From Clostridia bacterium (lineage in GTDB: Bacteria; Bacillota; Clostridia; Oscillospirales; CAG-272), in contig JAFQPM010000021.1 in the NCBI GenBank assembly GCA_017411745.1, forward strand, positions 71,460 through 135,459: a stretch of 64,000 nt of DNA, given 5' to 3'. Of the stretch, positions 19,290 to 61,721 are shown in pieces. The first letter of the stretch is position 1. Each line of letters begins with the position of its first letter. The translations under genes and the position numbers were made by a program. The notes below the pieces were generated by a model. It saw only the letters and a list, made by a program, of their open reading frames with translations, did not search any database and was not told the origin of the DNA.

Positions 19290-19579
19290 ATATAAAAAAC
19301 TCCTGTCCGCCGCAAAAACGGCTTGATAAAAATTCATTTTCTTTCCGCCGATAAACACACTCTCTCGCGCACGCGCGGAAAATAATCCACCTTATATTAT
19401 ACACAAAAAGGGGGTAAATGTCAAGGCGAAAGAGCGATTAATATGCAAAAAACTGAAAATTTATTCACTCTCTCGGCCAAAAATACTCCAATATTGTAAA
19501 TAAATTATAAAACTGCTTGAAATACAAGTCAAATTATGATAAAATTAATATGTACAACTTTACGCAAGGAACGTTTATT

Positions 19580-20053
19580 ATGGACATAAAGAAATTTTTT
19601 AAAAACCTTCTCTTTTTCGGTTCGGTATATTATACCGTGATCACAACAGTGCTTATTCTGATCGCCTCGCTTCTCCCGGGCGACTCCGCGCCACTCATAG
19701 AAACGAAACGCTTTCTTCTCATACTCCTATTCTCGTTTATGATGGGGATCGGTAGTGCCCTTTTGCGTGCAAACGTAATGAATCGAACCGCGGCAAGCCT
19801 CACGCATGCCGCCTGCTACGTTCTCGGATTTTTACTTTTCGTTGCGCTCGGCGGAGCGAATTTTTCCACAACCGTCATATTCACGCTTGTGTTCGCGATA
19901 ATTTACGTCACAGTCACCCTCATAGCAAGAAAGCTCTTAAAAATAGGCGTCGATAACGAAAAAAAGCTTTCCCAAAGCACCTCAAGTCCCAAAGGAAAAC
20001 CCCAAAAGAGCAAAAAACAAAAATCCACCTACACCAATCAATTTTTAAAATAA
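19580..20053 (+). CDS. Small integral membrane protein, function unknown
   Basis: Four predicted hydrophobic helices and a basic C-terminal tail (KGKPQKSKKQK). ATG 19580 is preferred over the TTG at 19517. Confidence 0.5.
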   Translation: MDIKKFFKNLLFFGSVYYTVITTVLILIASLLPGDSAPLIETKRFLLILLFSFMMGIGSALLRANVMNRTAASLTHAACYVLGFLLFVALGGANFSTTVIFTLVFAIIYVTVTLIARKLLKIGVDNEKKLSQSTSSPKGKPQKSKKQKSTYTNQFLK

Positions 20054-20062
20054 GAGCGAAAA

Positions 20063-20845
20063 ATGTCGGAACAAAGATTTAATAAAACCGCGAAAGCTCT
20101 CGTCACGGCGATCATTATACTAACCGTCGCCTGCGCAGTTTCGCTCATAACTATGCTTTTTCGCGGAATAAGAAGTGATATTTTCAAAAAAAACGAAAAA
20201 GAAGCTCCCGTCACCATAAAGCTTGCAGAAACCTCAGACTACGGACAATACTACGTAGACAGTATAGTGTTTGTCGGTGACTCCACGATAGCAGGAATGA
20301 TAAACGCGGGAGTCCTCAAAAACGGTACCGAGACCGATCAGGTTTGGACGGGCGAGAATGGAGATCTGCCGCTTGATTATAATATCGACACGGCAACGGT
20401 TGTCTGCTCAAAGGACGGAAAGCTCCTAACGATAGCCTCCGCAATCGAAGAAAGAAGACCCGAGTATATCGTAATAACTTTGGGAATAAATAACGGCGTT
20501 CCTTATTGCACCGAGGAAAACTTCAAAGCATACTATCAGAAGCTCATCACCTCAATAAAGGACACTTCCCCGAACGCAAGAATAATTTTGCAATCTATCC
20601 TCCCGGTGTCTGAAAAGTACGCAAAAAGCACCTCGGGAGTGACCGCAAATAAGATAGACACCGCAAACCAATGGATCGCAGAGCTCGCCGAGCAAAACGG
20701 CGTAAGATATCTCGATACTGCATCTGCACTCAAAAACTCAAAAGGATATCTCGACACGAAATACGATTCGGGAAACGGCTTGCATCTCAACGCAAGCGGC
20801 TATAACGCCATGCTGACCTACATAAGAACCCACGGCTATAGATAA
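20063..20845 (+). CDS. Membrane-anchored SGNH/GDSL-family hydrolase
   Basis: N-terminal TM helix, then block I VFVGDSTIAG, block III GINNG and block V DSGNGLHLN (D..H). Confidence 0.8.
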   Translation: MSEQRFNKTAKALVTAIIILTVACAVSLITMLFRGIRSDIFKKNEKEAPVTIKLAETSDYGQYYVDSIVFVGDSTIAGMINAGVLKNGTETDQVWTGENGDLPLDYNIDTATVVCSKDGKLLTIASAIEERRPEYIVITLGINNGVPYCTEENFKAYYQKLITSIKDTSPNARIILQSILPVSEKYAKSTSGVTANKIDTANQWIAELAEQNGVRYLDTASALKNSKGYLDTKYDSGNGLHLNASGYNAMLTYIRTHGYR

Positions 20846-20851
20846 AAAAAC

Positions 20852-20881
20852 AGGGCTTTCACACAAATGTGTGAAAGCCCT
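20852..20881. terminator. Bidirectional terminator (SGNH gene / array paralog P1)
   Basis: 14-bp stem AGGGCTTTCACACA/TGTGTGAAAGCCCT, with A7 upstream and a T-rich run downstream. Confidence 0.85.
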
Positions 20882-20892
20882 TTAAATTTTTG

Positions 20893-22527
20893 TCAATCCT
20901 CTTTCTTACGGAAAGCAACCGCACCGACGACCGATACGACAGCAACGACCGTAGCAGCGCCAAAGCCTACGACCGATCCGCAACCGTTTTTAACAGCAGG
21001 CTCGGGAACAAGATCGTCAGCCGTGCTCTGCTCATCGTCTTTAGCGGTGGTCTGACCATCCTCAACCGACGAAGTAACCTCTGTCTGTTCCGCAGTAGTC
21101 TGCTCGCTGGTCGGCTCCGTCTCGGGAACATAGCCAAGTCCCTCAATGTAGCTCATAAAGTAAGCCTCAGCGTCCTCCTCGCTTGCAAAGAACGCAATAA
21201 AGCAAACGTCAAACGTGTTAGCACCGGGAGTTGTGATATCAACGTTCTGCGCATCAAAACGAACGCCGTTGATTCGACCCGTATAATCCGAAAGCTCCGA
21301 AACGTCAACCGTGAAGGATAAATAACTGTCCTCTCCGATGTAGTAAGAATCCCAGGATACTCCGCTATTGGATATCTGGCAGTTAGGTCCTGGAGAAACG
21401 TTATCTCCGGTCATAATATATACGTTTCCGGTCTCAAAAGCGCCGCAAAGTCCGTCAATCTTGTCTTCCTCACTGCAAGTACAAAGATTTCTCGTTACCA
21501 TCATTGCTACGGGAAAATCCTCGATCGCGTAAGACGTAGCGTTTTCAACCGTCCAAGTGCCCGTACCCGTCGAAGCATTGCCTGCGACGATCTTGATCGT
21601 GTAATCATCGTTGATAGAAACAGCCTCACCCGTAGTTGACGCGGGAGCAGACTTGATATTAGAATTATCAACGTCACCGTTCATAAATATAGCAGGCTGA
21701 CCGGGCGCTATGTCGGGATCTTCAACCAAGGGCGCAGTCACGTAATTGTATGACCAATCCTCAGGCTCAGCACTGTCATCACCCGCAGGAGTCGCGCAAT
21801 CCTCTGCACTTGTGCCGTACTTAAGAAGAGTGCAAGCCACCTTACCGTTAAGCTCGCTGTGCTGCAAAGCAAATCCCGCGTATGCAAGACTGTCATCTCC
21901 GCCCCACTTTTCGTTCATATACTTGATAACACTTGAAGGCGCGGCAACTCCGTTAATAGTATATGCAAAGGTAGAGTTTTCATCATCCCAAGAGATTTCG
22001 GCAATGAAAACAGTCCTCTCTTCGTCGCCGTAAGTGACGGTTTTCTTGGGGATCTGGTTAGTCTGAGGTTGCTGATCACAATCTCCGGCATACCAGAAAT
22101 TTATATTGTTACCCGTAGGACGAATGTGATTATAAACACCGTTTCCGTGCCCCTTCTCACCCGGGGTCATATGCATATTATCCCAGAAAATAAAGGTAAA
22201 CCATGAATCAAGCCCACCGCTAAAATTAAACTCGTCGATTCTTATCTCCATATAAACGCCGTCCTTGAGATCGACCTTATCCTTGGAAACAAAACGTGCC
22301 CAAGGGGTCTGACCCGCCCAGTTTGCTGCAGTCAGATGGAATCCATCGTCATCATAATTGTATCCCGCAACCGATTCATAATCACTCTTGGGCGCACTGC
22401 CGTCGTACTGGTCTGCTCTGCCAACAGCCACCCAATCACCCTCGACCGCAGCCGTTGGTATCGTCGCCACGATAAGCAATGAAACGATCATCGCAATAGC
22501 AAGAACCATAGAAATAAATTTTTTCAT
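20893..22527 (-). CDS. Secreted surface protein, array paralog P1 (signal peptide, two conserved modules, acidic stalk, GCGSVVGFG-TM-RKKED end)
   Basis: 544 aa. ATG 22527 (MKKFISMVLAIAMIV...) follows AAGGAGAA; the track ATG 22557 lies in the 5' UTR. See findings. Confidence 0.85.
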   Translation of the reverse strand: MKKFISMVLAIAMIVSLLIVATIPTAAVEGDWVAVGRADQYDGSAPKSDYESVAGYNYDDDGFHLTAANWAGQTPWARFVSKDKVDLKDGVYMEIRIDEFNFSGGLDSWFTFIFWDNMHMTPGEKGHGNGVYNHIRPTGNNINFWYAGDCDQQPQTNQIPKKTVTYGDEERTVFIAEISWDDENSTFAYTINGVAAPSSVIKYMNEKWGGDDSLAYAGFALQHSELNGKVACTLLKYGTSAEDCATPAGDDSAEPEDWSYNYVTAPLVEDPDIAPGQPAIFMNGDVDNSNIKSAPASTTGEAVSINDDYTIKIVAGNASTGTGTWTVENATSYAIEDFPVAMMVTRNLCTCSEEDKIDGLCGAFETGNVYIMTGDNVSPGPNCQISNSGVSWDSYYIGEDSYLSFTVDVSELSDYTGRINGVRFDAQNVDITTPGANTFDVCFIAFFASEEDAEAYFMSYIEGLGYVPETEPTSEQTTAEQTEVTSSVEDGQTTAKDDEQSTADDLVPEPAVKNGCGSVVGFGAATVVAVVSVVGAVAFRKKED

Positions 22528-22578
22528 ACCTTTTCTCCTTGATAAATATTTTTGCAAAACACGGGTTCTACTTTTTTA

Positions 22579-22607
22579 ATTTTATCACGAAATTGGGGCA
22601 AAGTAAA
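22579..22607 (-). promoter_or_regulatory. Promoter of P1
   Basis: Sense strand reads AATTTACT - 17 nt - (TGa)TAAAAT. Confidence 0.7.
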
Positions 22608-22664
22608 TTCTCATTATAAACAAATTGAACGTTTTATTTTTGTTAGTATTGACAAACAAAAAAA

Positions 22665-22696
22665 GGTGGCTGTCACACGTTTGTGTGACAGCCACC
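22665..22696 (-). terminator. Terminator of P2
   Basis: 14-bp stem GGTGGCTGTCACAC/GTGTGACAGCCACC, followed by T7 on the minus strand. Confidence 0.85.
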
Positions 22697-22750
22697 AAAA
22701 AGTCAGGAACGGATTATAAGTGAGATTTTGAATCCGTTATGTATCCTTAA

Positions 22751-24394
22751 TTAGTCTTCCTTTTTCTTGAAGGAAACGAAGCCTGCAACGGATGCAACGG
22801 CAACGATTGCGATAGCGCCAAAGCCAACTACGCTTCCGCAGCCGCCCTGTGCATCGTCATCAGAAGGAGCAGCGGTGGTTCCTGCGGGCTTATCGTCCTC
22901 AGGAGCAGCGGTGGTTACATCAGGAGCCTTGGTAGTTTCCTCGGTAGTCTCCTCGGTAGTCTCCTCGGTGGTCTCTTCGGTAGTATCGTCTGCATCGGGA
23001 TCTTCCCAACCAAGGCTGGTGAGGTAGTTCTCGAAGTAAGCGTTAGCATCATCCTCGGTTGCGAAGCATGCTATGAAGCAAATGTCGAAGGTGTTAGCAC
23101 CGGGAGTAGTTGTATCAATGTTCGTAAGGTCAAAACGAACGGCATTGATTCTGCCGGAGAACGCGGAAATCTCGGAAGCATCAAGCATCATGCAAAGATA
23201 TCCGTCGTCGCCGATGTAGTAGGAATCCCAAGATACCGATGCGGAAGCCATACAGCCTGCGTCAGCGGTAAGATGATCGCCGGTCATAAGATATACGTTA
23301 CTGGTCTCGTAAGCGCCGCAACGTCCATCGACCTTATCATCTTCGGTACAAGTGCAGAAGTTCTTGGTAACCATCATAATGATAGGAAGGTCTTCAACAG
23401 CATAAGACGTAGCGTTCTCAACTATCCATGATCCTGTAGCGGAGGAAGAGTTGCCGGCTACGATCTTAACAGTGCCGTCCTCATTGAAGGTAATGGTCTC
23501 ACCGGAAGCAGAACCGGGAAGAGCCTTGATGTTGGAGTCAAGACTACCGTTCATAAAGATACCGGGCTGACCTGCCTCAAAGGAAGGATTCTCAACAACG
23601 GGAGCAGTTACGTAATTGGTAGAATAGTCGACAGGATCAGCGTAATCATCACCTGCGGGAACGGTAGCGTCGTCAGCGCTGGTGCCAAACTTGGTCATCG
23701 TGCAGCTGATAGCCTCGTCCTTGCTGTTGTGCTGGAATGCAAATCCAACGTAAGCTTCGCTGTCATCGCCGCCCCACTTCTCATTCATGTAAGTGATAGC
23801 TGCTTCAGCTGCAGCTTTACCGTTGATGGTGTATGTGAAGGTGCTGTTTGCCTCATCCCAAGCAATAACAACGGTGAGGTTGTGCTTACCATCCTCATCG
23901 ATATCCTGGGGAATGTCTTCCCATGTCTTAGGATTCAACTGAGTAAAGCCACCTGTAAACCAATAAGTGGTGTTGTTGATACCGGGACGGATAAGGTTCT
24001 GAAGACCTGTGCCGTAGTTAGGGTCACCGGGGGTCATAACCTGCTGGTCCCAAAGCATAACGTTGAACCAAGAGTCAAGACCTGCACCGTAGTTGAACTC
24101 ATCGATTCTGATCTCCATGTAAACGCCTGCCTTAAGGTCGATCTTGTTCTTGGAAACGAATCTTGCCCAAGGGGTCTGACCTGCCCAGTTAGCAGCGGTT
24201 ACGTGGAAACCGTCAGTTGTGTACTCGTATCCTGCTACGGAATTGTACTCCTCTTCGCCGATCTCCTCATTTTCCTGCTTTGCCTGAGCAACAACGGTCC
24301 AATCACCGTCGATAGCTGCTGTAGGAAGGGTAGCAACTATAACGAGAGAGAGCATCATTGCGAGAGTAAGCAAGATAGAAAGAAACTTTTTCAT
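22751..24394 (-). CDS. Secreted surface protein, array paralog P2
   Basis: 547 aa. ATG 24394 (MKKFLSILLTLAMML...) follows AAGGAGAA. Same architecture as P1, with a (TTEE)n stalk. Confidence 0.85.
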   Translation of the reverse strand: MKKFLSILLTLAMMLSLVIVATLPTAAIDGDWTVVAQAKQENEEIGEEEYNSVAGYEYTTDGFHVTAANWAGQTPWARFVSKNKIDLKAGVYMEIRIDEFNYGAGLDSWFNVMLWDQQVMTPGDPNYGTGLQNLIRPGINNTTYWFTGGFTQLNPKTWEDIPQDIDEDGKHNLTVVIAWDEANSTFTYTINGKAAAEAAITYMNEKWGGDDSEAYVGFAFQHNSKDEAISCTMTKFGTSADDATVPAGDDYADPVDYSTNYVTAPVVENPSFEAGQPGIFMNGSLDSNIKALPGSASGETITFNEDGTVKIVAGNSSSATGSWIVENATSYAVEDLPIIMMVTKNFCTCTEDDKVDGRCGAYETSNVYLMTGDHLTADAGCMASASVSWDSYYIGDDGYLCMMLDASEISAFSGRINAVRFDLTNIDTTTPGANTFDICFIACFATEDDANAYFENYLTSLGWEDPDADDTTEETTEETTEETTEETTKAPDVTTAAPEDDKPAGTTAAPSDDDAQGGCGSVVGFGAIAIVAVASVAGFVSFKKKED

Positions 24395-24459
24395 CTTTTT
24401 TCTCCTTAAAAATAAATAATTTTGTGCAAAAGACAAATCTCCAATCTTTTGTTATATAT

Positions 24460-24488
24460 ATTTTAGCACGAAAAGCAAATAAAGTAAA
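24460..24488 (-). promoter_or_regulatory. Promoter of P2
   Basis: Sense strand reads AATTTACT - 17 nt - (TGc)TAAAAT. Confidence 0.7.
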
Positions 24489-24589
24489 TTCGCATTATTC
24501 ACAAATTCCCCAATTCATTTTTGTTAGTATTGACAAACACAAAATTGTATCATCATAGCAATATTACGCATATTCGGATCTTCTAAAAA

Positions 24590-24620
24590 GAGGCTGTCGC
24601 GCAAGCACGCGACAGCCTCT
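24590..24620 (-). terminator. Terminator of P3
   Basis: 13-bp stem GAGGCTGTCGCGC/GCGCGACAGCCTC-type hairpin, followed by T5 on the minus strand. Confidence 0.75.
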
Positions 24621-24671
24621 TGGATTTCGGATCAGATTATTTTACGCCTCCGACCCATTATTGGTTTTTTA

Positions 24672-26492
24672 TCAGTCTTTCTTCTTTTTGAAAGAAACAA
24701 ATCCTGCAACAGCAACAACCGTAACGATCGCAACCGTACCGAGTCCGACTACACTTCCGCATCCGCCCAAGAGTGAATTAAGGATCTCGTCCTCAATATC
24801 GTTCAAATCATCATTGTCTGAATCGATTTTGGAATCGTCTTCAGCAGAAGTATGCTCGGGAGTATCCGTAGTCTCGGACATCTCAGCAGTTTCAATACCC
24901 GTAGACTCTGCAATTTCGGTCGTCTCGGGAGCTTCGGTAGTGTCAACAAATGTAGTATCAGGGGGCTCCGTAGTATCAAAGATCTCTGTAGTCTCCATAA
25001 CCGTTGTTTCAACAACATCTGTAGTTTCTTCTATAACAGTGGTCTCGGATGTAGTGGTGGTCACTTCATCAGGGGTTTCAGTAGATTCTTCTTCCCTGTC
25101 ATCATAACCAAGATCATTTATGTAGTTCATAAAATACGCATTTGCATCGTCGTACGTTGCAAAAAACGCTACGTAGCAAATATCGAAGGTACTAGCACCA
25201 GGTCTGAACATATCAATCTGAGAAACGTCAAAGCGAACGGCATTGATCCTTCCCGTAAATGAAGGAATTTCAGATACGTCTACGGTAAACTCAAGGTAAC
25301 TGTCTTCACCTATGTAATAAGAATCCCAACTTACCGACGTAGAAAGCATACAGCTTGCATCAGGCACCAATTTGTTCCCGACCATAATGTACGCATGAGC
25401 GTACTCGAAAGCTCCGCAAAGGCCATCATACTTGTCCTCCTCTATACACGTGCATAGGTTTCTCGTAACCACCGTCATTATGGGGAAATCCTCAATGGCG
25501 TAAGAGGTGGCGTTCTCAACGATCCAATTTCCCGTAGCGGAGTAAGAGTTGAAAGCTGTGATCTCGACTGTGTCGTCATCGTTGATAGATATAACTTCTC
25601 CGGTAGCCGATTTGGGATAATTTTTAATGTGAGAGTCAAGATTACCGTTCATAAAGATGGCTGGCTGCCCTGCTTCGACCTGAGAACCTTCAACTATAGG
25701 AGCGTTTACGTAGTTGAGAGAGTAATCAATAGGATCAGCGTAATCGTCACCTGCGGGAGTAACGGCATCATCAGCACTTGTGCCAAACTTGGTAAGTGTG
25801 CAGCTTATATCCTCGCCCTTGCTGTTGTGCTGGAAGCAAAAGCCAACGTATGCCTCGCTGTCATTGCCGCCCCATTTCTCGTTCATATAAGCAATAGCAC
25901 CCTCTGCAGCAGAAACACCGTTAATGGTGTATACGAAGGTGCTGTTGACCTCGTCCCAAGAAATAACAACGGTAAGGTTGTGCTTTCCATTCTCATCGAT
26001 ATCCTGAGGAACATCTTCTCTGTCATACGAAGGAACCTGATTAAAAGGTCCTGTAAACCAATGAGTAACGTTGCCAATACCGGGGCGGATAAGGTTCTGG
26101 ACACCTTCTCCGTAATGAGTATTTCCGGGAGTCATGACCTGCTGATCCCAAAGCATAACGTTGAACCAAGAGTCAAGACTTGCGTCGTAGTTGAACTCAT
26201 CGATTCTGATCTCCATATAAACGCCTTCCTTAAGGTCGACCTTGTTTCTGGAAACGAATCTTGCCCAAGGTGTCTGACCCGCCCAGTTGGCAGAGATCAA
26301 ACGAAAGCCATCCATGCAATACTCATATCCAGCTACAGATTTGTACTCATCCTCTGGGATTTCCCCAAATTCTTGATCTGCCTGAGCAACAACAACCCAA
26401 TCGCCATCAATAGCAGCTGTAGGAATAGCAGCAACTATAATGAGAGAAATCATCAAAGCAAGCACAAGCAACAAACAAATAAGTTTTTTCAT
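24672..26492 (-). CDS. Secreted surface protein, array paralog P3 (longest stalk)
   Basis: 606 aa, RBS GGAGG, MKKLICLLLVLALMISL... Same architecture, with a stalk of about 125 aa rich in acidic and Thr residues. Confidence 0.85.
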   Translation of the reverse strand: MKKLICLLLVLALMISLIIVAAIPTAAIDGDWVVVAQADQEFGEIPEDEYKSVAGYEYCMDGFRLISANWAGQTPWARFVSRNKVDLKEGVYMEIRIDEFNYDASLDSWFNVMLWDQQVMTPGNTHYGEGVQNLIRPGIGNVTHWFTGPFNQVPSYDREDVPQDIDENGKHNLTVVISWDEVNSTFVYTINGVSAAEGAIAYMNEKWGGNDSEAYVGFCFQHNSKGEDISCTLTKFGTSADDAVTPAGDDYADPIDYSLNYVNAPIVEGSQVEAGQPAIFMNGNLDSHIKNYPKSATGEVISINDDDTVEITAFNSYSATGNWIVENATSYAIEDFPIMTVVTRNLCTCIEEDKYDGLCGAFEYAHAYIMVGNKLVPDASCMLSTSVSWDSYYIGEDSYLEFTVDVSEIPSFTGRINAVRFDVSQIDMFRPGASTFDICYVAFFATYDDANAYFMNYINDLGYDDREEESTETPDEVTTTTSETTVIEETTDVVETTVMETTEIFDTTEPPDTTFVDTTEAPETTEIAESTGIETAEMSETTDTPEHTSAEDDSKIDSDNDDLNDIEDEILNSLLGGCGSVVGLGTVAIVTVVAVAGFVSFKKKKD

Positions 26493-26546
26493 AATATTCC
26501 TCCTTCGTCAATATGTCATTCGATAAAAATCATTCCCTTACACTTA

Positions 26547-26575
26547 ATTTTAACACGAAACACAAGAAAAGTAAA
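26547..26575 (-). promoter_or_regulatory. Promoter of P3
   Basis: Sense strand reads AATTTACT - 17 nt - (TGt)TAAAAT. Confidence 0.7.
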
Positions 26576-26672
26576 TTAACAACATATACAAATCCCCCAT
26601 TTCATTTTTGTTGGTATTGCCCTGTAAAAAAATATCATAAACCTCAATCAAGCATATACACTTTTTAAAAAA

Positions 26673-26700
26673 AGGCTGCCACACGTCTGTGTGACAGCCT
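26673..26700 (-). terminator. Terminator of P4
   Basis: 12-bp stem (one G.U in the minus-strand RNA) AGGCTGTCACAC/GTGTGGCAGCCT, followed by T7 on the minus strand. Confidence 0.8.
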
Positions 26701-26752
26701 CTTGTCTTTCGGATCAGATTATTTTACGCCTCCGACCCATTATTGCTTTTTA

Positions 26753-28390
26753 TCAGTCTTCCTTTTTCTTGAAGAAGACAAATCCCGCAACGGCAGCAAC
26801 CGCAACGACCGCAGCCGTACCGAATCCGACTACGCTTCCGCAACCGCCTGCCTTATCATCGTCAGTAGAAGGAGCAGAAGTTCCTGTGGGCTTCTCGTCC
26901 TCGGGCGCAGCAGTAGTTCCTGCGGGAGCCTCAGTAGTTTCTGCGGGAGCTTCGGTAGTTTCCTCGGTGGGTTCCTCCGTGGTTTCTTCGGTAGTGTCAT
27001 CGGGATTCTCTACACCAATGTAATCATAAACGTAAGCCTCGGCCTCTTCCATATTTCTGAAGAATGCCATAAAGCACATGTCAAGAGTGTTTCTTCCGGG
27101 TTCATTGTAGAACATACCATAAAAATCCGCGCGCATACCGTGAATTCTTCCCTCTGCATCCCACAAATCCTCAGAGGACATATCGCAGAAGAAATACAGA
27201 TACGAATTACCTTCCTCGTCCAAGATAGGCTCGTAGCATACCTCAAGACGTGTTTTGTGATTGTCATCCGCGCTGGAGAACTCACCCGTCATAATGTAAG
27301 CCCAAACCTCCTCGCAAGCGAAGCAGATGACCTCGCCGTCCTCTTCCTCGCACGAGCAGTAGTTTCTTGTAAGCACAAGTGCTATTGGGAAGTCCTGAAT
27401 ATCGTACGAAACGTCATTCGCAACCGAGTAGTTCGCATTGATGATCGTCTTGTCAGCAAGATATGTAACCGACCAGTCGTCATCGTTACGGGTCCTGTAA
27501 GGATTGCCGCTGATACCCGTGTTGGTCTTCGCATCTGAAAATTCTCTGCTTCCGTTAAGCAACACTCCGGGCATGCCGGGCTCAACTGTGTCGGGAGATG
27601 CTATTTCAGCGATCTCGGTGTAGTAGTTAACGGGATCTTGTCTGTCATCACCCGTAGGAGTGGTTGCAGTTTCCTTGCTTGTACCGAACTTAAGGACAGT
27701 CATTTCCGCGGTGCCGCCCTTTTTACCCGCCATAAAGTTAAAACCAACGAATGCCTCCATATCAACGAAGGTCTCATTCATATATTTGATGACCGATTCG
27801 GGAGCCTTCCAGCCGTTGATATCAGCCGCAAACGTAGTACCGTCCCAAGTAACCGTAAGCTCAAGCAGAAGCTTGCCGTTTTCATCCATAGGAGAGGTTC
27901 CTTTGACAGTAGACTGTGCGCCTGCATCAAATCCGCCCGTGTGCCACCAAAGCGTATGGATAGTTCCGTCGGCATTGGTTCTTATAAGAGTTTGAACACC
28001 GAATCCGTACTTGTCAACGTCGTTACTTCCGGGCAGAACCATTTCCTGACTCCAAAGGTTCATATTAAACCATTTGTCGCCCGCATCCCAAGTAAATTCA
28101 TCAATACGAACGAGCATATAAACGCCCTGCTTAACGTCATATTGAGTCTTTGTCTGTATTCCGCCCTGAACACCAAAATCTTTCCAGTCAGCAGGAATCA
28201 CTCTAAGTCCCTCGTTGGTATATTCGTAACCGATAACGCTAGTGTAATCGCCCTCAAAATCGTCACGATATTCTCCCGCAGAAGAATAAGCCATCCAGTC
28301 GCCCTCAACCGCAGCCGCAGGAATACCAATGACCGCTGCAAGCGAGAAGATCATTGCTAAGCTCAAAAGTCCCGAAATAAATTTTTTCAT
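26753..28390 (-). CDS. Secreted surface protein, array paralog P4 (subfamily 2)
   Basis: 545 aa, RBS AAGGAGAG, MKKFISGLLSLAMIFSL... Same signal peptide, C-terminus and module order; the mature part is closest to P5. Confidence 0.85.
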   Translation of the reverse strand: MKKFISGLLSLAMIFSLAAVIGIPAAAVEGDWMAYSSAGEYRDDFEGDYTSVIGYEYTNEGLRVIPADWKDFGVQGGIQTKTQYDVKQGVYMLVRIDEFTWDAGDKWFNMNLWSQEMVLPGSNDVDKYGFGVQTLIRTNADGTIHTLWWHTGGFDAGAQSTVKGTSPMDENGKLLLELTVTWDGTTFAADINGWKAPESVIKYMNETFVDMEAFVGFNFMAGKKGGTAEMTVLKFGTSKETATTPTGDDRQDPVNYYTEIAEIASPDTVEPGMPGVLLNGSREFSDAKTNTGISGNPYRTRNDDDWSVTYLADKTIINANYSVANDVSYDIQDFPIALVLTRNYCSCEEEDGEVICFACEEVWAYIMTGEFSSADDNHKTRLEVCYEPILDEEGNSYLYFFCDMSSEDLWDAEGRIHGMRADFYGMFYNEPGRNTLDMCFMAFFRNMEEAEAYVYDYIGVENPDDTTEETTEEPTEETTEAPAETTEAPAGTTAAPEDEKPTGTSAPSTDDDKAGGCGSVVGFGTAAVVAVAAVAGFVFFKKKED

Positions 28391-28435
28391 AACAAGCTCT
28401 CCTTGACATTTTTTAGGGAGTTATCCCTTTAGATA

Positions 28436-28465
28436 ATTTTATCATAAAATATTTGTCATTGTAAA
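28436..28465 (-). promoter_or_regulatory. Promoter of P4
   Basis: Sense strand reads AATTTACA - 18 nt - (TGa)TAAAAT. Confidence 0.65.
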
Positions 28466-28532
28466 TTCGCATTCTTTACAAAAAATAACTATTTATTTGT
28501 AACTATTGCCCAATAAAACACTTTCAATAGAA

Positions 28533-28563
28533 AAGGCAGTCGTGCATAAAGCACGACTGCCTT
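28533..28563 (-). terminator. Terminator of P5
   Basis: 13-bp stem AAGGCAGTCGTGC/GCACGACTGCCTT. The U-tract is weak (UUCUAUUG). Confidence 0.6.
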
Positions 28564-28588
28564 TGTTAATGTTCACCCGTTAAAGCGG

Positions 28589-30217
28589 TCAATCTTCTTT
28601 TTTCTTTTTAAACGTAACGAATGCAACCGCACCTATAGTCGTAACCATAGCAACTGCACCAAATCCAACTACGCTTCCGCATCCACTATTTTCATCATCG
28701 TTTGCGGTATTGTCGTCGGAATCAGCACCGGTAGTCTTCTCGGGAGCTTTGGTAGTTTCCGTAGTAGCGTCTGTGGTCTCCCCAGGCGCCTCGGTGGTCG
28801 CTTCCTCGGTGGTGCTTTCAGTCTCAGCGGGCTTTTCTACGCCCAGATAATCGTAAACGTATCCCTCTGCATCCTCCATATCTCTGAAGAAACCGACGAA
28901 GCAAACGTCAAACTGGTTAAGTCCGGGGGTCGCATAATCAATTCCGTTAAAGTCCATACGAACAGCATTCACTCTTCCCTCTGCATCCCAAGGAGCGAAA
29001 TCATCACTCATATCCGTATAGAAGTACAGATAAGAATCACCGTCGATCTCAATGGGCTCCCAGCATACGTAAAGAGGCGTACAATGATCTCCGTCGGGGC
29101 TGTTAAATTCTCCGGTAACAAGGTACATCGTGACCTCCTCGCACGCAATGCAACTTCCGTCCTCCTCTCCGCAGGTGCAGAGATTTCTGACGAGCATCAT
29201 AACTGCGGGGAAATCATCTATGGAGTAAGATACTTCATTTTTAGGCTTATAAACTACGCTGACAGACGAGCTGCTTGCAATATAGGTAACCGAATTATCT
29301 TCGTTGAGAATAGAGTTACCCGTCGAGCTCTTGCCTGCGGTGGTATAGGAATCCGAAGCGTCCTTGCTTCCGTTGATAAGGATCGCGGGCTTGCCATCCT
29401 CTACGGTAGAAGGATCTGCAATTTCTGCGACCTCGAGAGAGTAGTTGACAGGAGCCTCTTTGTCGTCACCCGAAGGAGTCAGAGCAGTCTCCTTTGTAGT
29501 ACCGTACTTGAGAACGGTAAAGCTTGCATCTCCAAGGGTCTTGGTGTGGAAGAACGCCATACCGAGATGTGCCTCCATATCAACGAAGGTCTCGTTCATA
29601 TAGTCAATAACTTTCTGGGGGGCAGCGATTCCGTTAATGGTAAGAGCAAACGAATTGTTCTCGTAAGTAACCACGAGTTCAAAGAGCGCTCTGCCCTCCT
29701 CGTCGTACATATCTACCCCTTGGAACGCAGAAGATACCTGAACCTGAGTGAATCCCTCAATATACCATTCAAGCTGAATAAACTTTCCGTCGTTGCCGGG
29801 TCTCATAATAGTCTGAACACCGTATCCATCTCTTTCAGCGTCACTGCTTGCAAGCTCTACCATCGGCTCGCTCCAGAGATTAAGATTGAGCCACTTATCA
29901 GGCGCGTCGTAAGAAAACTCGTCAACGCGGATAAGCATGTAAACGCCTTCCTTGAGATCGTATGTGCTCTTGGTCTGAAGACCTCCTCTGGGGCTCTGAC
30001 CTGCATAGAACTCGGGAGAAATGGTATGGAATCCCTCGTTCGTGTATTCATAGCCCATAACGCTTACGTATTCGTCATCCTCATAGTCGTCGCGGTACTG
30101 CTCCTTGCGGGCATATACCATCCAGTCACCCTCGACCGCAGATGCGGGGAGAGAGACGATAATGAGGGTCGAAACGATCATAGCAACTGCCAACAGTAAC
30201 GATAAAAACCTTTTCAT
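28589..30217 (-). CDS. Secreted surface protein, array paralog P5 (subfamily 2)
   Basis: 542 aa, RBS AGGAGG, MKRFLSLLLAVAMIVSTL... Same architecture. Confidence 0.85.
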   Translation of the reverse strand: MKRFLSLLLAVAMIVSTLIIVSLPASAVEGDWMVYARKEQYRDDYEDDEYVSVMGYEYTNEGFHTISPEFYAGQSPRGGLQTKSTYDLKEGVYMLIRVDEFSYDAPDKWLNLNLWSEPMVELASSDAERDGYGVQTIMRPGNDGKFIQLEWYIEGFTQVQVSSAFQGVDMYDEEGRALFELVVTYENNSFALTINGIAAPQKVIDYMNETFVDMEAHLGMAFFHTKTLGDASFTVLKYGTTKETALTPSGDDKEAPVNYSLEVAEIADPSTVEDGKPAILINGSKDASDSYTTAGKSSTGNSILNEDNSVTYIASSSSVSVVYKPKNEVSYSIDDFPAVMMLVRNLCTCGEEDGSCIACEEVTMYLVTGEFNSPDGDHCTPLYVCWEPIEIDGDSYLYFYTDMSDDFAPWDAEGRVNAVRMDFNGIDYATPGLNQFDVCFVGFFRDMEDAEGYVYDYLGVEKPAETESTTEEATTEAPGETTDATTETTKAPEKTTGADSDDNTANDDENSGCGSVVGFGAVAMVTTIGAVAFVTFKKKKED

Positions 30218-35478: not shown

Positions 35479-37398
35479 TTATTCTTCGGGAACATAGTTG
35501 TAAATTATTGTTGCGTTAGTAAGATCAGCATTGTAATCATAAATGCTTATCTCCGCCCACTGCTCCTCCGTGCCGGAGAAGTATACGCTCTCAAGGCTTG
35601 TGCATCCATAGAAAGCAAAATTGCCAATACGTGTAACGCTATCAGGGATTGTTATACTCGTCAGACAACTACAATCATAGAATGCATAATCTACTATGCT
35701 TGTTACACCGTTGGGGATCGTTATACTTGTCAAACTGCTGTCATAGAACGCATTAGAACCAATGCCAACCGTATTTTCGCGCAAAACCGCCTGTGTGGTA
35801 TCACAATCAACTATCCATTTATCCACGTAGGATATTCCGTTTTCTACCTGAATCACTCCGGTACAACCGTAGAACGCAGAATCGCCTATGCTGGTTACAC
35901 TGGCAGGAATAGTTATGCTCGTCAGACCACTACACCCGTAAAAAGCATAAGAACTAATGCCCATAGTGTTTTCTCGTAAAATCGCCTGCGTGATAGAGGT
36001 ATCGCAATCGATTATCCATTTATCTACGTAGGATATTCCATTTTCCATTTGAATGACACCCGTGCAGCCACTGAATGCATAATCGCCTATGTATGTAACA
36101 CTATCTGGGATTGTTACGCTTGTCAACCCGCTACATCTCTGGAATGCACCATTACCAATACTAGTGACACTATCGGGGATCATTATGTTCGAAAGACCGG
36201 AGCATCCTGAGAACGAACCCTCACCAATGCTGGTGACACTGGAGGGTATTGTTATACTCGTCAAACTACTACAACGTCCGAACACGTAAGAATCAATTTT
36301 ATTAACACCATTAGGGATAGCTATGCTAGTCAGATTGTAACAATCATAGAATGCACGTCTACCAATATTAGTTACATTATCGGGAATAGTTATGCTAGTA
36401 AGACCGCTACACCCATAAAACGCATAAGAACTAATGCCCACCGTATTTTCGCGTAAAATTGCCTGAGTAATAGTGATATCGCAATCAACTATCCATTTAC
36501 CTACGTAAGATATTCCATTTTCTATTTGAATCACACTCGTGCAACCGTAAAATGCATCCTCACCAATGCTTGTAACACCATCGGGTATAGTTATGCTATC
36601 CAACCTGCTGCAATTATAGAACGCATATCTGCCAATGCTGGTGACACTATCAGACATCGTTATGCTCATAAGGTTGGAACATCCCGAGAATGCACTATCA
36701 CCAATGCTAGTAACACTGTCAGGTATTGTTATATTCGTAAGGTTGGAACAACAGTAAAACACATTCTCGCCAATGTAGGTTACGCTATCGGGAATAATTA
36801 TACTCGTCAGATTACTACAATTGTAGAACGCACGGTCGTCAACACTTGTAACGATGTATCCACCAGGGGATATAGACGGAATGACGATATCGGTATCAGT
36901 ACAAGTTCCTATTCCACTAACATAGCAAGTACTGCCGTCACTGTTAGTGGTAAATTCTAAACCTTCGCTTACAACTATCTCTTCATCCGTGGTCGCCTCG
37001 GAAGCTTCTGTAGTCTCAGAAGCCACCGTAGTCTCGGATGTTACCGTTGTCTCGGGAGCCTCGGTTGTTTCAGGCGATACAGATGTCTCGGGAATGTCTG
37101 TCGTCTCGGGTGCTACCGTTGTCTCGGGAGTTACTGTCGTTTCCTCACCCTTGGTCGTTTCTTCCGCCTCGGTCGTTTCCTCTGCCTTGGTCGTTTCCTC
37201 TGCCTTGGTCGTTTCCTCTGCCTTGGTCGTTTCCTCTGCCTTGGTCGTTTCCTCTGCCTTGGTCGTTTCCTCTATTTTAGTCGTTTCTTCGGCAGTCGTG
37301 GTCTCTTCCCCGCCGTTCGAACCACCGTCACACGCCGCCAAAGTCAGCAAACAAAGCGCCAAAACCAATAAAACCACCAATAACGATGCTTTTTTCAT
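35479..37398 (-). CDS. BspA-type leucine-rich-repeat (LRR_5) surface lipoprotein A
   Basis: 639 aa from ATG 37398 (RBS GGAGGAAGG). Lipobox LLTLAA-C, then an (EETTKA)n stalk, then many NLTSITIPDSVTSIG..AF..C repeats. Track ORF start 37515 runs through the promoter. Confidence 0.88.
   Translation of the reverse strand: MKKASLLVVLLVLALCLLTLAACDGGSNGGEETTTAEETTKIEETTKAEETTKAEETTKAEETTKAEETTKAEETTEAEETTKGEETTVTPETTVAPETTDIPETSVSPETTEAPETTVTSETTVASETTEASEATTDEEIVVSEGLEFTTNSDGSTCYVSGIGTCTDTDIVIPSISPGGYIVTSVDDRAFYNCSNLTSIIIPDSVTYIGENVFYCCSNLTNITIPDSVTSIGDSAFSGCSNLMSITMSDSVTSIGRYAFYNCSRLDSITIPDGVTSIGEDAFYGCTSVIQIENGISYVGKWIVDCDITITQAILRENTVGISSYAFYGCSGLTSITIPDNVTNIGRRAFYDCYNLTSIAIPNGVNKIDSYVFGRCSSLTSITIPSSVTSIGEGSFSGCSGLSNIMIPDSVTSIGNGAFQRCSGLTSVTIPDSVTYIGDYAFSGCTGVIQMENGISYVDKWIIDCDTSITQAILRENTMGISSYAFYGCSGLTSITIPASVTSIGDSAFYGCTGVIQVENGISYVDKWIVDCDTTQAVLRENTVGIGSNAFYDSSLTSITIPNGVTSIVDYAFYDCSCLTSITIPDSVTRIGNFAFYGCTSLESVYFSGTEEQWAEISIYDYNADLTNATIIYNYVPEE
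37153..37278 (-). repeat. 18-bp in-frame tandem repeat (EETTKA) in the LRR-A stalk
   Basis: Five perfect copies of GGTCGTTTCCTCTGCCTT at 37171-37260, flanked by one degenerate copy on each side. Confidence 0.95.
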
Positions 37399-37433
37399 TT
37401 GTCCTTCCTCCTGAAAAAAATAGAAAACAAAAA

Positions 37434-37455
37434 GTGCGCAGCCGAAACCGCGCAC
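37434..37455 (-). terminator. Terminator-like hairpin inside the 5' leader of LRR-A
   Basis: Sense RNA reads GUGCGCGG-uuucgg-CUGCGCAC followed by UUUUUGUUUUCUAUUUUUUU. It lies between the promoter (-10 at 37487-37492) and the RBS. Confidence 0.6.
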
Positions 37456-37486
37456 CAAGACACGAGCTCCAACTTTATCTCGTTTA

Positions 37487-37515
37487 ATTATATCATCACT
37501 ATCAATATTTGTCAA
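37487..37515 (-). promoter_or_regulatory. Consensus promoter of LRR-A
   Basis: Minus strand reads TTGACA (37515-37510) - 17 nt - (TGa)TATAAT (37492-37487). Confidence 0.8.
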
Positions 37516-37733: not shown

Positions 37734-39326
37734 TCATTCCTCAGGAACGTAGTTGTAAACTATCGTAGCGTTTGTAAGATAAGGATTGTCCCAACCAATA
37801 ATTATCTCCGCCCATTCTTCCTCGCTTCCCATGTAATAAACAGTCGTTAGACTACTGCAATCATTGAACGCATAATGGCCTATGCCCATGATGCTATCAG
37901 GGATAATTATACTCGTCAGACTACTGCAACCGCTGAACGCATAATTAAAAATATTCGTAAGCTGGCTGTTTTCGCCGCAAGCAACGCTCGTCAGACTACT
38001 GCAACCGTCGAACACATAATCGGCAATGATCTTTACGCTATCAGGGATTGTTATACTCGTTAGACTGTAGCACTCATAGAATGCCTTATTGCCAATGCTT
38101 ATAAGCTGGCTGTTTTCGCCAAAAACTACGCTCGTCAGACTGCTGCAACCATCGAACGCAAAATCGGCAATGGTCCTTACGCTATCGGGGATAGCTATAC
38201 TCGTCAGACTGCTGCAACCATCGAACGCAAAATAGCCAATGCTCGTGACGCTATCAGGGATAGTTATACTCGTCAGATTATCGCAATTCGCGAACGCCGC
38301 CTGACCAATGCTCATGACGCCATTGGGTATAGTTATACTAGTCAGACGGTCACATCTCCTGAATGCACCGCCGCCAATGCCGACCGTATCTTCGCGTATA
38401 ACTGCCTGTGTGATATCGGTGTCACAATCAATTATCCATTTATCTACGTAAGATATCCCGTTTTCTATTTGAATCACATCTATGCAACCATTAAACGCAT
38501 CCGGACCAATGCTCGTGACACTGTCGGGAATCGTTATACTCGTAAGACCACTGCAACCAATGAACGCATAATTGCCAATGCTCGCAAGTTGGCTGTTTTC
38601 ACCGAAAATAACGCTTGTCAAAGCACTGCATTCCTCGAACGCAGAATCACCAATGCTTTTAAGTTGGCTGTTTTCGCCGAAAATAACACTCGTCAAAGCA
38701 CTGCATTCCTTGAACACATAATCACCAATGCTTTTAAGTTGGCTGTTTTCGCCGAAAATAACACTCGTCAAAGCACTGCATTCCTCGAACGCACGGTCGC
38801 CTACACTCGTAACGCCATCGGGGATAGTTATGCTCGTCAGATTGCTGCAATCCTCGAATGCGCGATCGTATATACCCGTAACGCGATACCATATACCGTC
38901 ATTATCGCAGAAAACGTCGGGAATGATAAGCTGCTCGCCCATTTCACCCGTATAACCGATTTTCGTTCTGTTGCGTGAATTAACAGTAAAATCAATAGGT
39001 TTTATTACCTCATTATAGGAATCTCCACATTCGAAGCAGGTATACACCGCAAGTCCATTCTTGGTTGCGGTGGGTTCAGTTACTGCAGATTTGTAGTTAT
39101 GTCCGAGTGCATCAATATTCTGTGTTTCCTTTTCACCGCAAGCACAAGTGCGCTCCTGCTCACCCATCTCGGTGCAGGTCGCTTCCCTTATTATAGCCCA
39201 TTCACCGAATGAACAAATATGTTCTTTGGTGGTTTCCCCACCGTTCGAACCGCTATCACACGCCGCCAAAGTCAGCAAACAAAGCGCCAAAACCAATAAA
39301 ACCACCAATAACGATGCTTTTTTCAT
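37734..39326 (-). CDS. BspA-type leucine-rich-repeat (LRR_5) surface lipoprotein B
   Basis: 530 aa from ATG 39326. The signal peptide and lipobox are identical to LRR-A. A Cys-rich module is followed by LRR_5 repeats. The C-terminal 30 aa are near-identical to LRR-A (NATI[IV]YNYVPEE). Confidence 0.88.
   Translation of the reverse strand: MKKASLLVVLLVLALCLLTLAACDSGSNGGETTKEHICSFGEWAIIREATCTEMGEQERTCACGEKETQNIDALGHNYKSAVTEPTATKNGLAVYTCFECGDSYNEVIKPIDFTVNSRNRTKIGYTGEMGEQLIIPDVFCDNDGIWYRVTGIYDRAFEDCSNLTSITIPDGVTSVGDRAFEECSALTSVIFGENSQLKSIGDYVFKECSALTSVIFGENSQLKSIGDSAFEECSALTSVIFGENSQLASIGNYAFIGCSGLTSITIPDSVTSIGPDAFNGCIDVIQIENGISYVDKWIIDCDTDITQAVIREDTVGIGGGAFRRCDRLTSITIPNGVMSIGQAAFANCDNLTSITIPDSVTSIGYFAFDGCSSLTSIAIPDSVRTIADFAFDGCSSLTSVVFGENSQLISIGNKAFYECYSLTSITIPDSVKIIADYVFDGCSSLTSVACGENSQLTNIFNYAFSGCSSLTSIIIPDSIMGIGHYAFNDCSSLTTVYYMGSEEEWAEIIIGWDNPYLTNATIVYNYVPEE
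38576..38800 (-). repeat. Three near-identical 75-bp (25-aa) tandem LRR units
   Basis: Period of 75 bp from CAATGCT... at 38576, 38651 and 38726. Encodes SALTSVIFGENSQL[KA]SIG[DN][YS][AV]F[KEI][EG]C. Confidence 0.9.
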
Positions 39327-39365
39327 TTGTCCTTCCTCCTGAAAATGAAAAATAGGAAACAAAAA

Positions 39366-39387
39366 GTGCGCAGCCGAAACCGCGCAC
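39366..39387 (-). terminator. Terminator-like hairpin inside the 5' leader of LRR-B
   Basis: Same sequence as 37434-37455, followed by a U-rich tract before the RBS. Confidence 0.6.
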
Positions 39388-39418
39388 CAAGACACGAGCT
39401 TCAACTTTATCTCGTTTA

Positions 39419-60834: not shown

Positions 60835-61611
60835 TCAGGAAATATCCCTTTGATCGCAAGGGATATCAAGCTTATCTGCGCAGACGTTTAACGTAACATA
60901 CATAACAAAATAGCATATCACGGCAAGCACTATCTCAGCCAGATAAGCGACTATCATAAGCAGCGGATCGAGGATCTTTTCGATCGTGAGAATATCGTTG
61001 ATCGCTTGCGTCATAAGGCTTATAAGCAGTATAACGATCGAGCACGCGAGGACGGATCGAAGCAAGCAATTCTCTTTATCGTAGAGCTTTTTGAAGGGGA
61101 AAATCTCGGGAATAAGATGAGTTTTGCCGACTTTTTGGCAGAATTCGACCGCTTTCCAATGACGTGAAATAAGTGAGCAAACGATTGCCAAAACGAGTGC
61201 AAGCTGCAAAAGCTCAAGGATCGAGTAGTACATTACATACAAAATATCGACGGGCCAAGACTTTGGAATACTGCCATTAGTTATCCAGTCGACGATCGTA
61301 TTCAGTGAATATTTATGCAATGTTGCTCCTATAAATATTCCTACCCCTCCCTTGAAGCTCGAGAGTGTGAATCGGTATATTCCATAGATCATGACCGCAT
61401 ACGCTGCCGCAACAGCGACCAATTCAAGCAGTCGTCTGAGATAGAACAAAACGTCGACCAGCACGGATCCATCATACATGATATCGTTTATCACGCCAAT
61501 ATAAATCGGGGATACTACGAGTCCGTTAAGCGTGTATAACGTCGCAAGTGTGATCGCGCTGAAAAGATACAGTTTTTTTCTTAATGCTTTTTTATTATCG
61601 TATAATTTCAT
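60835..61611 (-). CDS. Integral membrane protein, function unknown
   Basis: 258 aa with about 6 hydrophobic helices. ATG 61611 follows GAGG; the track TTG at 61626 is unsupported. Confidence 0.5.
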   Translation of the reverse strand: MKLYDNKKALRKKLYLFSAITLATLYTLNGLVVSPIYIGVINDIMYDGSVLVDVLFYLRRLLELVAVAAAYAVMIYGIYRFTLSSFKGGVGIFIGATLHKYSLNTIVDWITNGSIPKSWPVDILYVMYYSILELLQLALVLAIVCSLISRHWKAVEFCQKVGKTHLIPEIFPFKKLYDKENCLLRSVLACSIVILLISLMTQAINDILTIEKILDPLLMIVAYLAEIVLAVICYFVMYVTLNVCADKLDIPCDQRDIS

Positions 61612-61721
61612 CAAAAACCTCGTCAAAAACGCAGATCTTCAGCGATCTGCATTTTTGCATATTTTGTGTATATCGTTGTGAATATTCATTTTTGCTTATT
61701 GTGGATTTAACCTATCGATAT

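Follow-up and report, generated by a model that had tools for sequence, protein, structure and literature searches.

Four C-terminal sorting signals that contain a Cys have been catalogued in the survey by Haft, namely MYXO-, JDVT-, Synerg- and CGP-CTERM, none of them in Firmicutes (bioRxiv 10.1101/2023.06.07.544157). Their hosts are diderm bacteria or archaea, and each of the four is linked to a CPBP protease. For MYXO-CTERM this protease is MrtX, and the cut that it makes depends on the Cys; an 'Lgt-like acyl-transferase' has been predicted to act on this tail, the enzyme itself not having been identified, and the inverted topology of the signal has been noted (PMC11980579). We describe here a tail of similar design, encoded in a 64,000-nucleotide stretch of the Clostridia bacterium assembly GCA_017411745.1 (contig JAFQPM010000021.1, positions 71,460 to 135,459), hereafter called the window. 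Five genes arranged in tandem on the minus strand of this window, P1 to P5, encode proteins that all end, as an earlier note on this DNA had pointed out, in GCGSVVG[FL]G followed by a hydrophobic helix and by KKK[KE]D. This tail is probably an uncatalogued Cys-containing C-terminal sorting signal of gut Clostridia, processed by a pair of enzymes, a homologue of Lgt and a CPBP protease. We found no account of such a sorting system in Firmicutes in the literature.

The tail resembles the MYXO-CTERM/MrtX system in its tripartite design at the extreme C-terminus, in its invariant Cys within a G-C-G context, in the many unrelated cargo proteins per genome, in the CPBP/Rce1-like candidate protease and in the proposed scheme, whereby the Cys would be lipidated and the chain then cleaved distally. 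However, the clostridial tail is not matched by the MYXO-CTERM hidden Markov model (HMM), and its host is monoderm, with no outer membrane and no type II secretion system (T2SS) step. Its end is Lys-rich and finishes in Glu-Asp, as opposed to an Arg cluster, and it has a single Cys where GCGC is frequent in MYXO-CTERM. Moreover, the clostridial protease is paired with an Lgt homologue, whereas the MYXO-CTERM lipid transferase is the missing member of that system. Synerg-CTERM and MrtS of Synergistota (TIGR04564, NF040589) share with the clostridial system a Ser/Gly-rich motif, a single invariant Cys abutting the helix and a CPBP partner. In Synerg-CTERM, however, the Cys ends the motif, whereas conserved residues follow it in the clostridial tail; the phylum is different and a T2SS link exists on the Synerg-CTERM side. 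Eukaryotic and archaeal CaaX processing, by a prenyltransferase and Rce1 (MmRce1), offers a further parallel, in that a separate enzyme lipidates a Cys of the C-terminal region and a CPBP protease cleaves just after it, but the CaaX end consists of four cytosolic residues, the lipid is a prenyl group and the transferase is unrelated to Lgt. In our best reading of these comparisons, the clostridial tail would join the Cys-type, CPBP-processed C-terminal sorting signals as their fifth member, and as the first known from monoderm Firmicutes.

Conservation of the tail

The five genes of the array encode products of 542–606 aa, and separate gene calls agree with the open reading frames (ORFs): P1 (20893–22527, 544 aa), P2 (22751–24394, 547 aa), P3 (24672–26492, 606 aa), P4 (26753–28390, 545 aa) and P5 (28589–30217, 542 aa), all on the minus strand. 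Translation reproduced the tail peptides reported previously, which are GCGSVVGFGAATVVAVVSVVGAVAFRKKED in P1 (20896–20985), GCGSVVGFGAIAIVAVASVAGFVSFKKKED in P2 (22754–22843), GCGSVVGLGTVAIVTVVAVAGFVSFKKKKD in P3 (24675–24764), GCGSVVGFGTAAVVAVAAVAGFVFFKKKED in P4 (26756–26845) and GCGSVVGFGAVAMVTTIGAVAFVTFKKKKED in P5 (28592–28684), again on the minus strand. In a five-way alignment, G-C-G-S-V-V-G-x-G is invariant, with overall identities to P1 of 58, 57, 40 and 38% for P2 to P5, the last two forming a second subfamily. The motif is indeed identical across the two subfamilies, as the earlier note had it, but these are not 'only distantly alike': they are clearly homologous.

The codons of the motif vary in the way previously described. 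Ser is encoded by TCG, AGC or AGT, Val-Val by GTC GTA, GTA GTT or GTA GTC, and G[FL]G by GGC TTT GGC, GGA CTC GGT, GGA TTC GGT or GGA TTT GGT. Pairs of paralogs differ synonymously at 2–6 of the nine motif codons, the sole amino-acid change being F/L, and whole-gene nucleotide identity among P1 to P5 is 50–72%. The peptide is therefore under purifying selection, in agreement with what had been argued before, and recent gene conversion as the cause of the tail identity is ruled out by the synonymous drift.

The invariance of GCGSVVG[FL]G holds in the five paralogs; across 156 distinct tails the core is reduced to Gly at position -1, Cys at position 0 and Gly at position +5. Gly is found at -1 in 155 tails and Cys in all 156, counts that lean upward since the tails were gathered with a Cys-containing profile and a regular expression requiring Cys. 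Position +1 is Gly (123) or Ala (23), position +2 is Ser in 134 of the 156, position +3 is Val (110) or Thr (22), position +4 is Val or Ile in 144 and position +5 is Gly in 154. In these tails the Cys is separated from the basic cluster by 21–23 residues, which corrects the earlier estimate. The tails end in KKKED, KKKD or RKKED, that is, in a Lys-rich rather than Arg-rich stretch with a terminal acidic residue; such an end is still a basic cluster and is probably equivalent in function to an Arg-rich one. The helix that follows the motif is rich in Gly and Ala, with conserved G+5, G+7, A+8, A+10 and A+13.

Whole proteins and tails alone were compared with NCBIfam release 20 (E≤10) and with Pfam. 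No NCBIfam or Pfam model reached its cut-off for the whole proteins or tails of the window or for ten more divergent tails taken from related genomes, so that the match to an existing CTERM model that had been considered possible did not materialize. PEP_CTERM gave 10.2 bits (cut-off 16) with one tail, the MXAN_2561 family model gave 11–13 bits in its tail region (cut-off 150), and the tails of the MXAN_2561/6652 family models gave 11–14 bits. MYXO-CTERM (TIGR03901) was absent from the matches, as were Firmicu-CTERM, GlyGly-CTERM, JDVT-CTERM, CGP-CTERM and PGF-CTERM, assuming that each of these models is in the library. Synerg-CTERM (TIGR04564, cut-off 22.5) did not match the window tails; it gave 8.8–19.4 bits with variant tails, and 16.3–19.4 bits with tails that contain a Pro and are encoded beside the enzyme pair. 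These scores suggest that the clostridial and Synergistota signals grade into one another. The Pro lies inside the helix in this subgroup, for example in GCKSAVGFGVLAFIIPTAMVLKKKKH, and the cargo gene is directly upstream of the Lgt-like gene in the eight loci concerned.

The models that came nearest to their cut-offs with the window tails were those of sortase signals. LPXTG_anchor (TIGR01167) gave 13.3–15.3 bits against a cut-off of 15.9, and Rumino_NPXTG (NF033846) gave weaker matches, 11–16.2 bits against 23.5. Gram-positive hosts, the tripartite layout and stalked adhesin or lectin cargo are common to these signals and to the clostridial tail. Furthermore, the fold matches of the cargo, described below, include L-type lectin surface adhesins of other Gram-positives, which are LPXTG-anchored. 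One could therefore imagine a divergent sortase signal, with a sortase variant reading G-C-G-S instead of LPXTG or NPXTG and attaching the protein to peptidoglycan. We consider this very unlikely: the alignments cover profile positions 11–34 of LPXTG_anchor and 7–30 of Rumino_NPXTG, corresponding to the helix and basic end only, and miss the motif. Neither LPXTG nor NPXTG is present in the tail, and there is no Pro or Thr at the motif. Sortases operate by one-step transpeptidation and leave a wall-linked product. No sortase was seen near the cargo genes, whose recurrent neighbours are the Lgt-like and CPBP genes.

Carriers of the tail and their hosts

To survey proteins bearing the tail, a profile of 33 positions built from nine tails was used in an exhaustive search of 1.84 billion representative proteins. 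It matched 223 clusters at E≤1e-3, in proteins of 44–1774 aa. The tail is strictly C-terminal: in all of the best 150 of these 223 clusters the match ends at most 4 residues from the C-terminus. It is also modular. Once their last 70 residues had been cut off, 95 full-length carriers fell into at least 12 groups without BLAST similarity to one another, the largest being the lectin-like family of the window with 71 of the 95 members. F5_F8_type_C, Laminin_G_3, PPC, LRR_5 (BspA-type leucine-rich repeats), Big_3 and Endonuclease_1 are among the Pfam domains of the carriers. The earlier note had proposed to ask whether unrelated families carry the tail, and these groups with their differing domains show that they do. 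Word-indexed searches with tail profiles returned short metagenome fragments only. In relatives, the lectin-like module is also found fused to BspA-type leucine-rich repeats with the tail in place, as in a protein of 929 aa.

The taxonomic spread was examined with two degenerate DNA patterns in one genome per species for 185,579 species. The exact-motif pattern gave 82 matches, about 33 of which run in frame into a hydrophobic stretch, a basic cluster and a stop. These true copies belong nearly all to gut metagenome-assembled genomes (MAGs) of Clostridia, Eubacteriales or Oscillospiraceae; the exceptions are a copy assigned to Bacteroidales, which probably reflects mis-binning, and another titled only 'uncultured bacterium'. 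About 60 further copies, in the same clade only, were recovered with the looser pattern, and several MAGs harbour four or five copies on different contigs. The guts in question are those of ruminants, horses, chickens and humans. Chance as the origin of the tail was rejected on two grounds, the exact-motif matches outside Clostridia never being in frame with a helix, a basic cluster and a stop, and the position being C-terminal in the best 150 clusters. Loose-pattern matches in Acidobacteriaceae and Nitrospira were discarded as an unrelated conserved C-terminus or as out of frame; the conserved end seen at nine Acidobacteriaceae loci, ...KRCASAVGEGAMAVTFVHRYL, is that of an unrelated soluble protein.

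The cargo proteins P1 to P5 begin with a signal peptide of the signal peptidase I type, ending in A-x-A, and have no N-terminal lipobox. About 440 globular residues follow, then an acidic Thr/Glu/Pro stalk of 40–120 residues, longer in P3, and finally the tail. The globular part was not recognized by Pfam or NCBIfam in the whole-protein scans. An AlphaFold2 model of P2, built with 32 homologues, has a mean predicted local distance difference test (pLDDT) score of 82 and shows two beta-sandwich domains, the stalk and tail (residues 469–547) scoring below 50; the fold of P1 and the other paralogs is assigned through P2. Foldseek places the first domain of this model with L-type (legume-like) lectins, such as the M. 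jannaschii lectin 7ELV, Emp46/47 and ERGIC-53, and with the lectin domains of YwfG, Aap, SasG, Pls and SraP, which are surface adhesins of Gram-positive bacteria. From this placement, we predict that the cargo proteins form a family of lectin-like surface proteins on stalks. The second beta-sandwich contains a Cys triad, N-x-C-T/S-C-x-E-E-D ... C, which is invariant in the 32 homologues (around residues 345–360 of P2, with equivalents in P1 to P5) and is a possible disulfide or metal site.

The full-length lectin-like family is small (35 matches), and its tails vary only as GC[GAKSF][SGA]..G. The loci closest to the window are found in Clostridia and Oscillospiraceae MAGs from ruminant guts, and the presence of a YabQ sporulation gene within the window identifies the host as a sporulating Clostridium. 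Together with the origin of the sequence in an ENA metagenome assembly, this points to an uncultured Clostridium of the gut. In the NCBI annotation the cargo is labelled 'hypothetical protein', and the partner enzymes carry generic names.

The Lgt-like and CPBP gene pair

Clustering of the ORFs around 87 cargo loci revealed the gene order cargo, 250–260 aa protein, 256–262 aa protein in four distant MAGs. The first of the two enzymes is an Lgt homologue, matching PF01790 with E values of 1e-26 to 1e-35 (93–121 bits, cut-off 24.9). The second, whose sequences are 32–38% identical among the four MAGs, is a CPBP/Rce1-like protease, matching PF02517 with E values of 1e-14 to 1e-20 (53–72 bits, cut-off 22.4), and its EExxxR, FxxxH and HxxxN/D motifs are all invariant. 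Most of its sub-threshold NCBIfam matches are sorting proteases (MrtJ, Mrt_core, MrtS, MrtP, MrtC and MrtA), with 21–28.5 bits for Mrt_core (NF040914, cut-off 100) and 23–36 bits for MrtJ (cut-off 75), which is among the best. Judged from these matches, the protease is a predicted CPBP enzyme related to the myxosortase families but outside every described subfamily. The two-gene JDVT-CTERM/MrtJ cassette of Proteobacteria (NF033192) likewise has a tagged protein adjoining its CPBP protease. The clostridial helix, however, lacks Asp-Pro, the clostridial cassette has a third member, the Lgt homologue, and many clostridial cargo genes, including the five of the window, lie away from the enzymes.

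A search of genomes with the CPBP alignment yielded 313 loci, and the counts that follow were made on the best 80. All 80 belong to the same clade as the tail genomes. In 77 of them, with protease identities of 35–44%, the Lgt-like gene is directly upstream of the CPBP gene. Of the 73 loci that could be assessed, 23 have a Cys-tail gene immediately upstream of the pair by a strict test, and about 32 have one when GCKS-type tails are included; as background, 12 of 1214 other ORFs carry a Cys-tail, all 12 being true tail genes nearby. An HMM made from the five window tails alone detected 25 of the 2367 ORFs of the pair loci at E<0.01 (best score 45.7 bits), in each case with the match lying at the C-terminus or no more than 14 residues short of it. 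A broader tail HMM detected 42 ORFs in 32 loci, the next match having an E value of 1.5. The co-occurring enzyme that the earlier note had proposed to look for has its candidates in this pair, directly downstream of tail genes in many related genomes. No other gene universally accompanies the pair in the neighbourhood of these loci. Six loci have tail genes on both sides of the pair, or cargo of 1168–1658 aa; these are small 'sorting islands'.

At the level of genomes, 19 of the 80 CPBP genomes are among 53 named motif-bearing MAGs, against an expectation of about 13.5 on the assumption that all motif genomes have the pair and that 80 of the 313 loci are in view. One of the 19, JAZSGD, harbours a four-gene array orthologous to that of the window, with the pair located behind FtsK on a different contig. 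Signal and pair are both limited to a single clade, so that shared ancestry confounds this co-occurrence at the genome level; the neighbourhood evidence is the stronger of the two.

The tail might also be a plain, unprocessed type I anchor, in which the G-C and the Gly/Ala face would serve helix packing or an interchain disulfide, for oligomerization or partner docking. The spacing of small residues is GxxxG-like (G+1 to G+5, and G+5/G+7/A+8) with strong conservation within the helix, the sub-threshold LPXTG and NPXTG matches span the helix and basic tail only, and no enzyme gene is present in the window. We nevertheless regard a plain anchor as unlikely, as it leaves unexplained why an invariant G-C stands at the exact start of the helix in unrelated proteins, why the tail is never internal and why tail genes precede the Lgt-like and CPBP pair in so many loci.

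As to the Lgt homologue, it falls below all NCBIfam Lgt equivalog cut-offs (57–89 bits for TIGR00544, cut-off 118.9; 71–131 for NF000778, cut-off 334) and has GRxGCxxxGCCxG throughout, where classical Lgt has GRxGNFxNxExxG. Aligned with E. coli Lgt (5AZB), it keeps two Arg in conserved segments, the equivalents of R143 and R239 in E. coli numbering; these and the other conserved sites taken up below are of importance in structural work on E. coli Lgt. The tail itself mirrors a lipobox. In the direction from helix to Cys, C-[GA]-S-[VT] reads [VT](+3)-S(+2)-[GA](+1)-C, to be compared with the lipobox definition [LVI][ASTVI][GAS]C (quoted in PMC12462473). Such a mirror lipobox is the pattern expected by an Lgt-type enzyme facing an inverted substrate, and therefore supports lipidation. 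As in the lipoprotein pathway (lipobox, Lgt and LspA), an Lgt-family enzyme would act on a Cys that is flanked by small residues and stands where a cleavable helix meets the outer leaflet; in contrast to that pathway, the clostridial helix is C-terminal with inverted topology, and the partner is a CPBP protease and not signal peptidase II.

We infer lipidation followed by cleavage, and the site of the cut, from the MYXO-CTERM and CaaX precedents, the mirror-lipobox motif and the Arg pair kept in the Lgt homologue. In the proposed pathway, the N-terminal signal peptide would direct the lectin-like protein into Sec export, and the tail helix would hold it in the membrane, the KKK(E)D terminus facing the cytoplasm and the G-C lying at the outer leaflet. 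The Lgt-family transferase, encoded beside the CPBP gene elsewhere in the genome, would then place a lipid on the Cys thiol, and the CPBP protease, akin to Rce1 and the myxosortases, would cut just C-terminal to the Cys and so remove the helix. The mature protein would be anchored by a C-terminal lipid, its acidic Thr/Glu/Pro stalk carrying the lectin domains through the wall. The earlier idea of a new processed sorting or lipid-anchoring signal gains support from the unrelated carriers, the enzyme pair and the lack of any model match. More tentatively, the lipid transferase that Cys-type signals have so far lacked could be this Lgt homologue, which would add diacylglycerol to the mirror-lipobox Cys before the CPBP protease removes the helix.

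Alternatively, the CPBP protease or another intramembrane protease, such as a rhomboid, could cleave the tail without lipidation and shed the lectins, the Lgt homologue being an ordinary lipoprotein enzyme that shares the operon. A helix start rich in Gly and Ala is typical of intramembrane-protease substrates, and the pair is often away from cargo. The Lgt homologue might be an extra paralog, or it could be the sole Lgt of these genomes: no canonical GRxGNFxNxE motif was found in 2.3 Mb of fetched loci, a sample too small to judge whether a second Lgt exists. Shedding is nonetheless improbable in our view. The two genes stay adjacent in nearly all of the loci examined at 35–44% protease identity, which points to a functional link between them; the invariant Cys and the mirror lipobox would be without a role, the Lgt homologue scores under every Lgt equivalog cut-off, and no rhomboid was seen near cargo.

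Processing of the tail by the Lgt-like and CPBP pair must also be set against several other observations that do not favour it. The conserved Gly/Ala pattern of the helix could equally serve packing, and in the Lgt homologue three further conserved sites, N146, E151 and H103, are occupied by Cys or Ala. The lectin-like family of the window is adjacent to the pair in none of the best 80 CPBP loci, and in more than half of these loci the pair follows FtsK, PyrI-like or other non-cargo genes and could be housekeeping. The pair was found neither in the window nor in the 10 kb past its right end, which carry UvrAB, PBP and PGI, so that its presence in the window's own genome is deduced from relatives.

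Gene neighbourhood and significance

No sortase, rhomboid, CPBP or Lgt gene was detected in the window, either by Pfam scans of the neighbours and of all ORFs with multiple transmembrane (TM) segments or by tblastn with the enzymes of the pair, which bears out the earlier statement that protease and sortase genes are lacking there. A 263-aa multi-TM ORF (60835–61626, minus strand) has no Pfam match and lacks the CPBP motifs. It has at least four hydrophobic segments and is conserved beside the aminotransferase gene in other assemblies, two loci having there a 258-aa gene without Pfam match. Neighbour clustering of the loci syntenic with the window brought out housekeeping genes only (aminotransferase, radical SAM, GDSL hydrolase, a 4-TM protein and NusB), and the contexts of two distant paralogs contained no enzyme.

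Each gene of the array is preceded by one promoter-like TTTAC[AT]-17/18-TAAAAT element, a consensus match, on the minus strand: TTTACT-17-TAAAAT with TG upstream of P1 (22579–22607), and recurring elements upstream of P2 (24460–24488), P3 (26547–26575), P4 (28436–28465) and P5 (30266–30294). A bidirectional terminator-like hairpin (20852–20881) lies between P1 and a convergent GDSL hydrolase gene, and a similar hairpin follows P2 (22665–22696); both are likewise consensus matches. Long antisense ORFs of 226–371 aa overlap the cargo genes on the plus strand (23729–24409, 25629–26579, 27638–28360 and 29084–30199). They are most likely not genes; the clustering of their homologues across loci stems solely from the homology of the sense genes.

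Convergent to the array, on the plus strand at 19517–20053 and 20063–20845, are genes for a membrane-anchored GDSL/SGNH hydrolase and a 4-TM DUF3021-like protein, which occupy the same position relative to the array in 13–14 related loci. In a distant relative, cargo paralogs stand beside a 691-aa GDSL hydrolase, a DUF386 gene and a SASA sialate O-acetylesterase-like gene. The GDSL and SASA neighbours hint at a shared role in the handling of O-acetylated glycans. Further along the window, two BspA-type leucine-rich-repeat proteins (35479–37515 and 37734–39404, both minus strand) have an N-terminal hydrophobic segment and no Cys-tail.

If our reading is correct, this is the first Cys-type signal in monoderm Firmicutes, and it operates in abundant uncultured gut Clostridia. 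The cassette of cargo, Lgt-like and CPBP genes supplies a specific candidate for the Cys-lipidating enzyme that the MYXO-CTERM field lacks (PMC11980579), and its compactness makes the lipidation question directly testable. If the Lgt homologue is indeed that enzyme, a C-terminal lipoprotein pathway would exist in Gram-positive bacteria, and a first genetic handle on the lipidation step of MYXO-CTERM would be at hand. Curated libraries miss the signal; with an HMM of the tail, hundreds of proteins now called 'hypothetical' would be reannotated as surface-displayed. Lectin or carbohydrate-binding folds are present in many of them, and these probably have a role in attachment to glycans or to the host.

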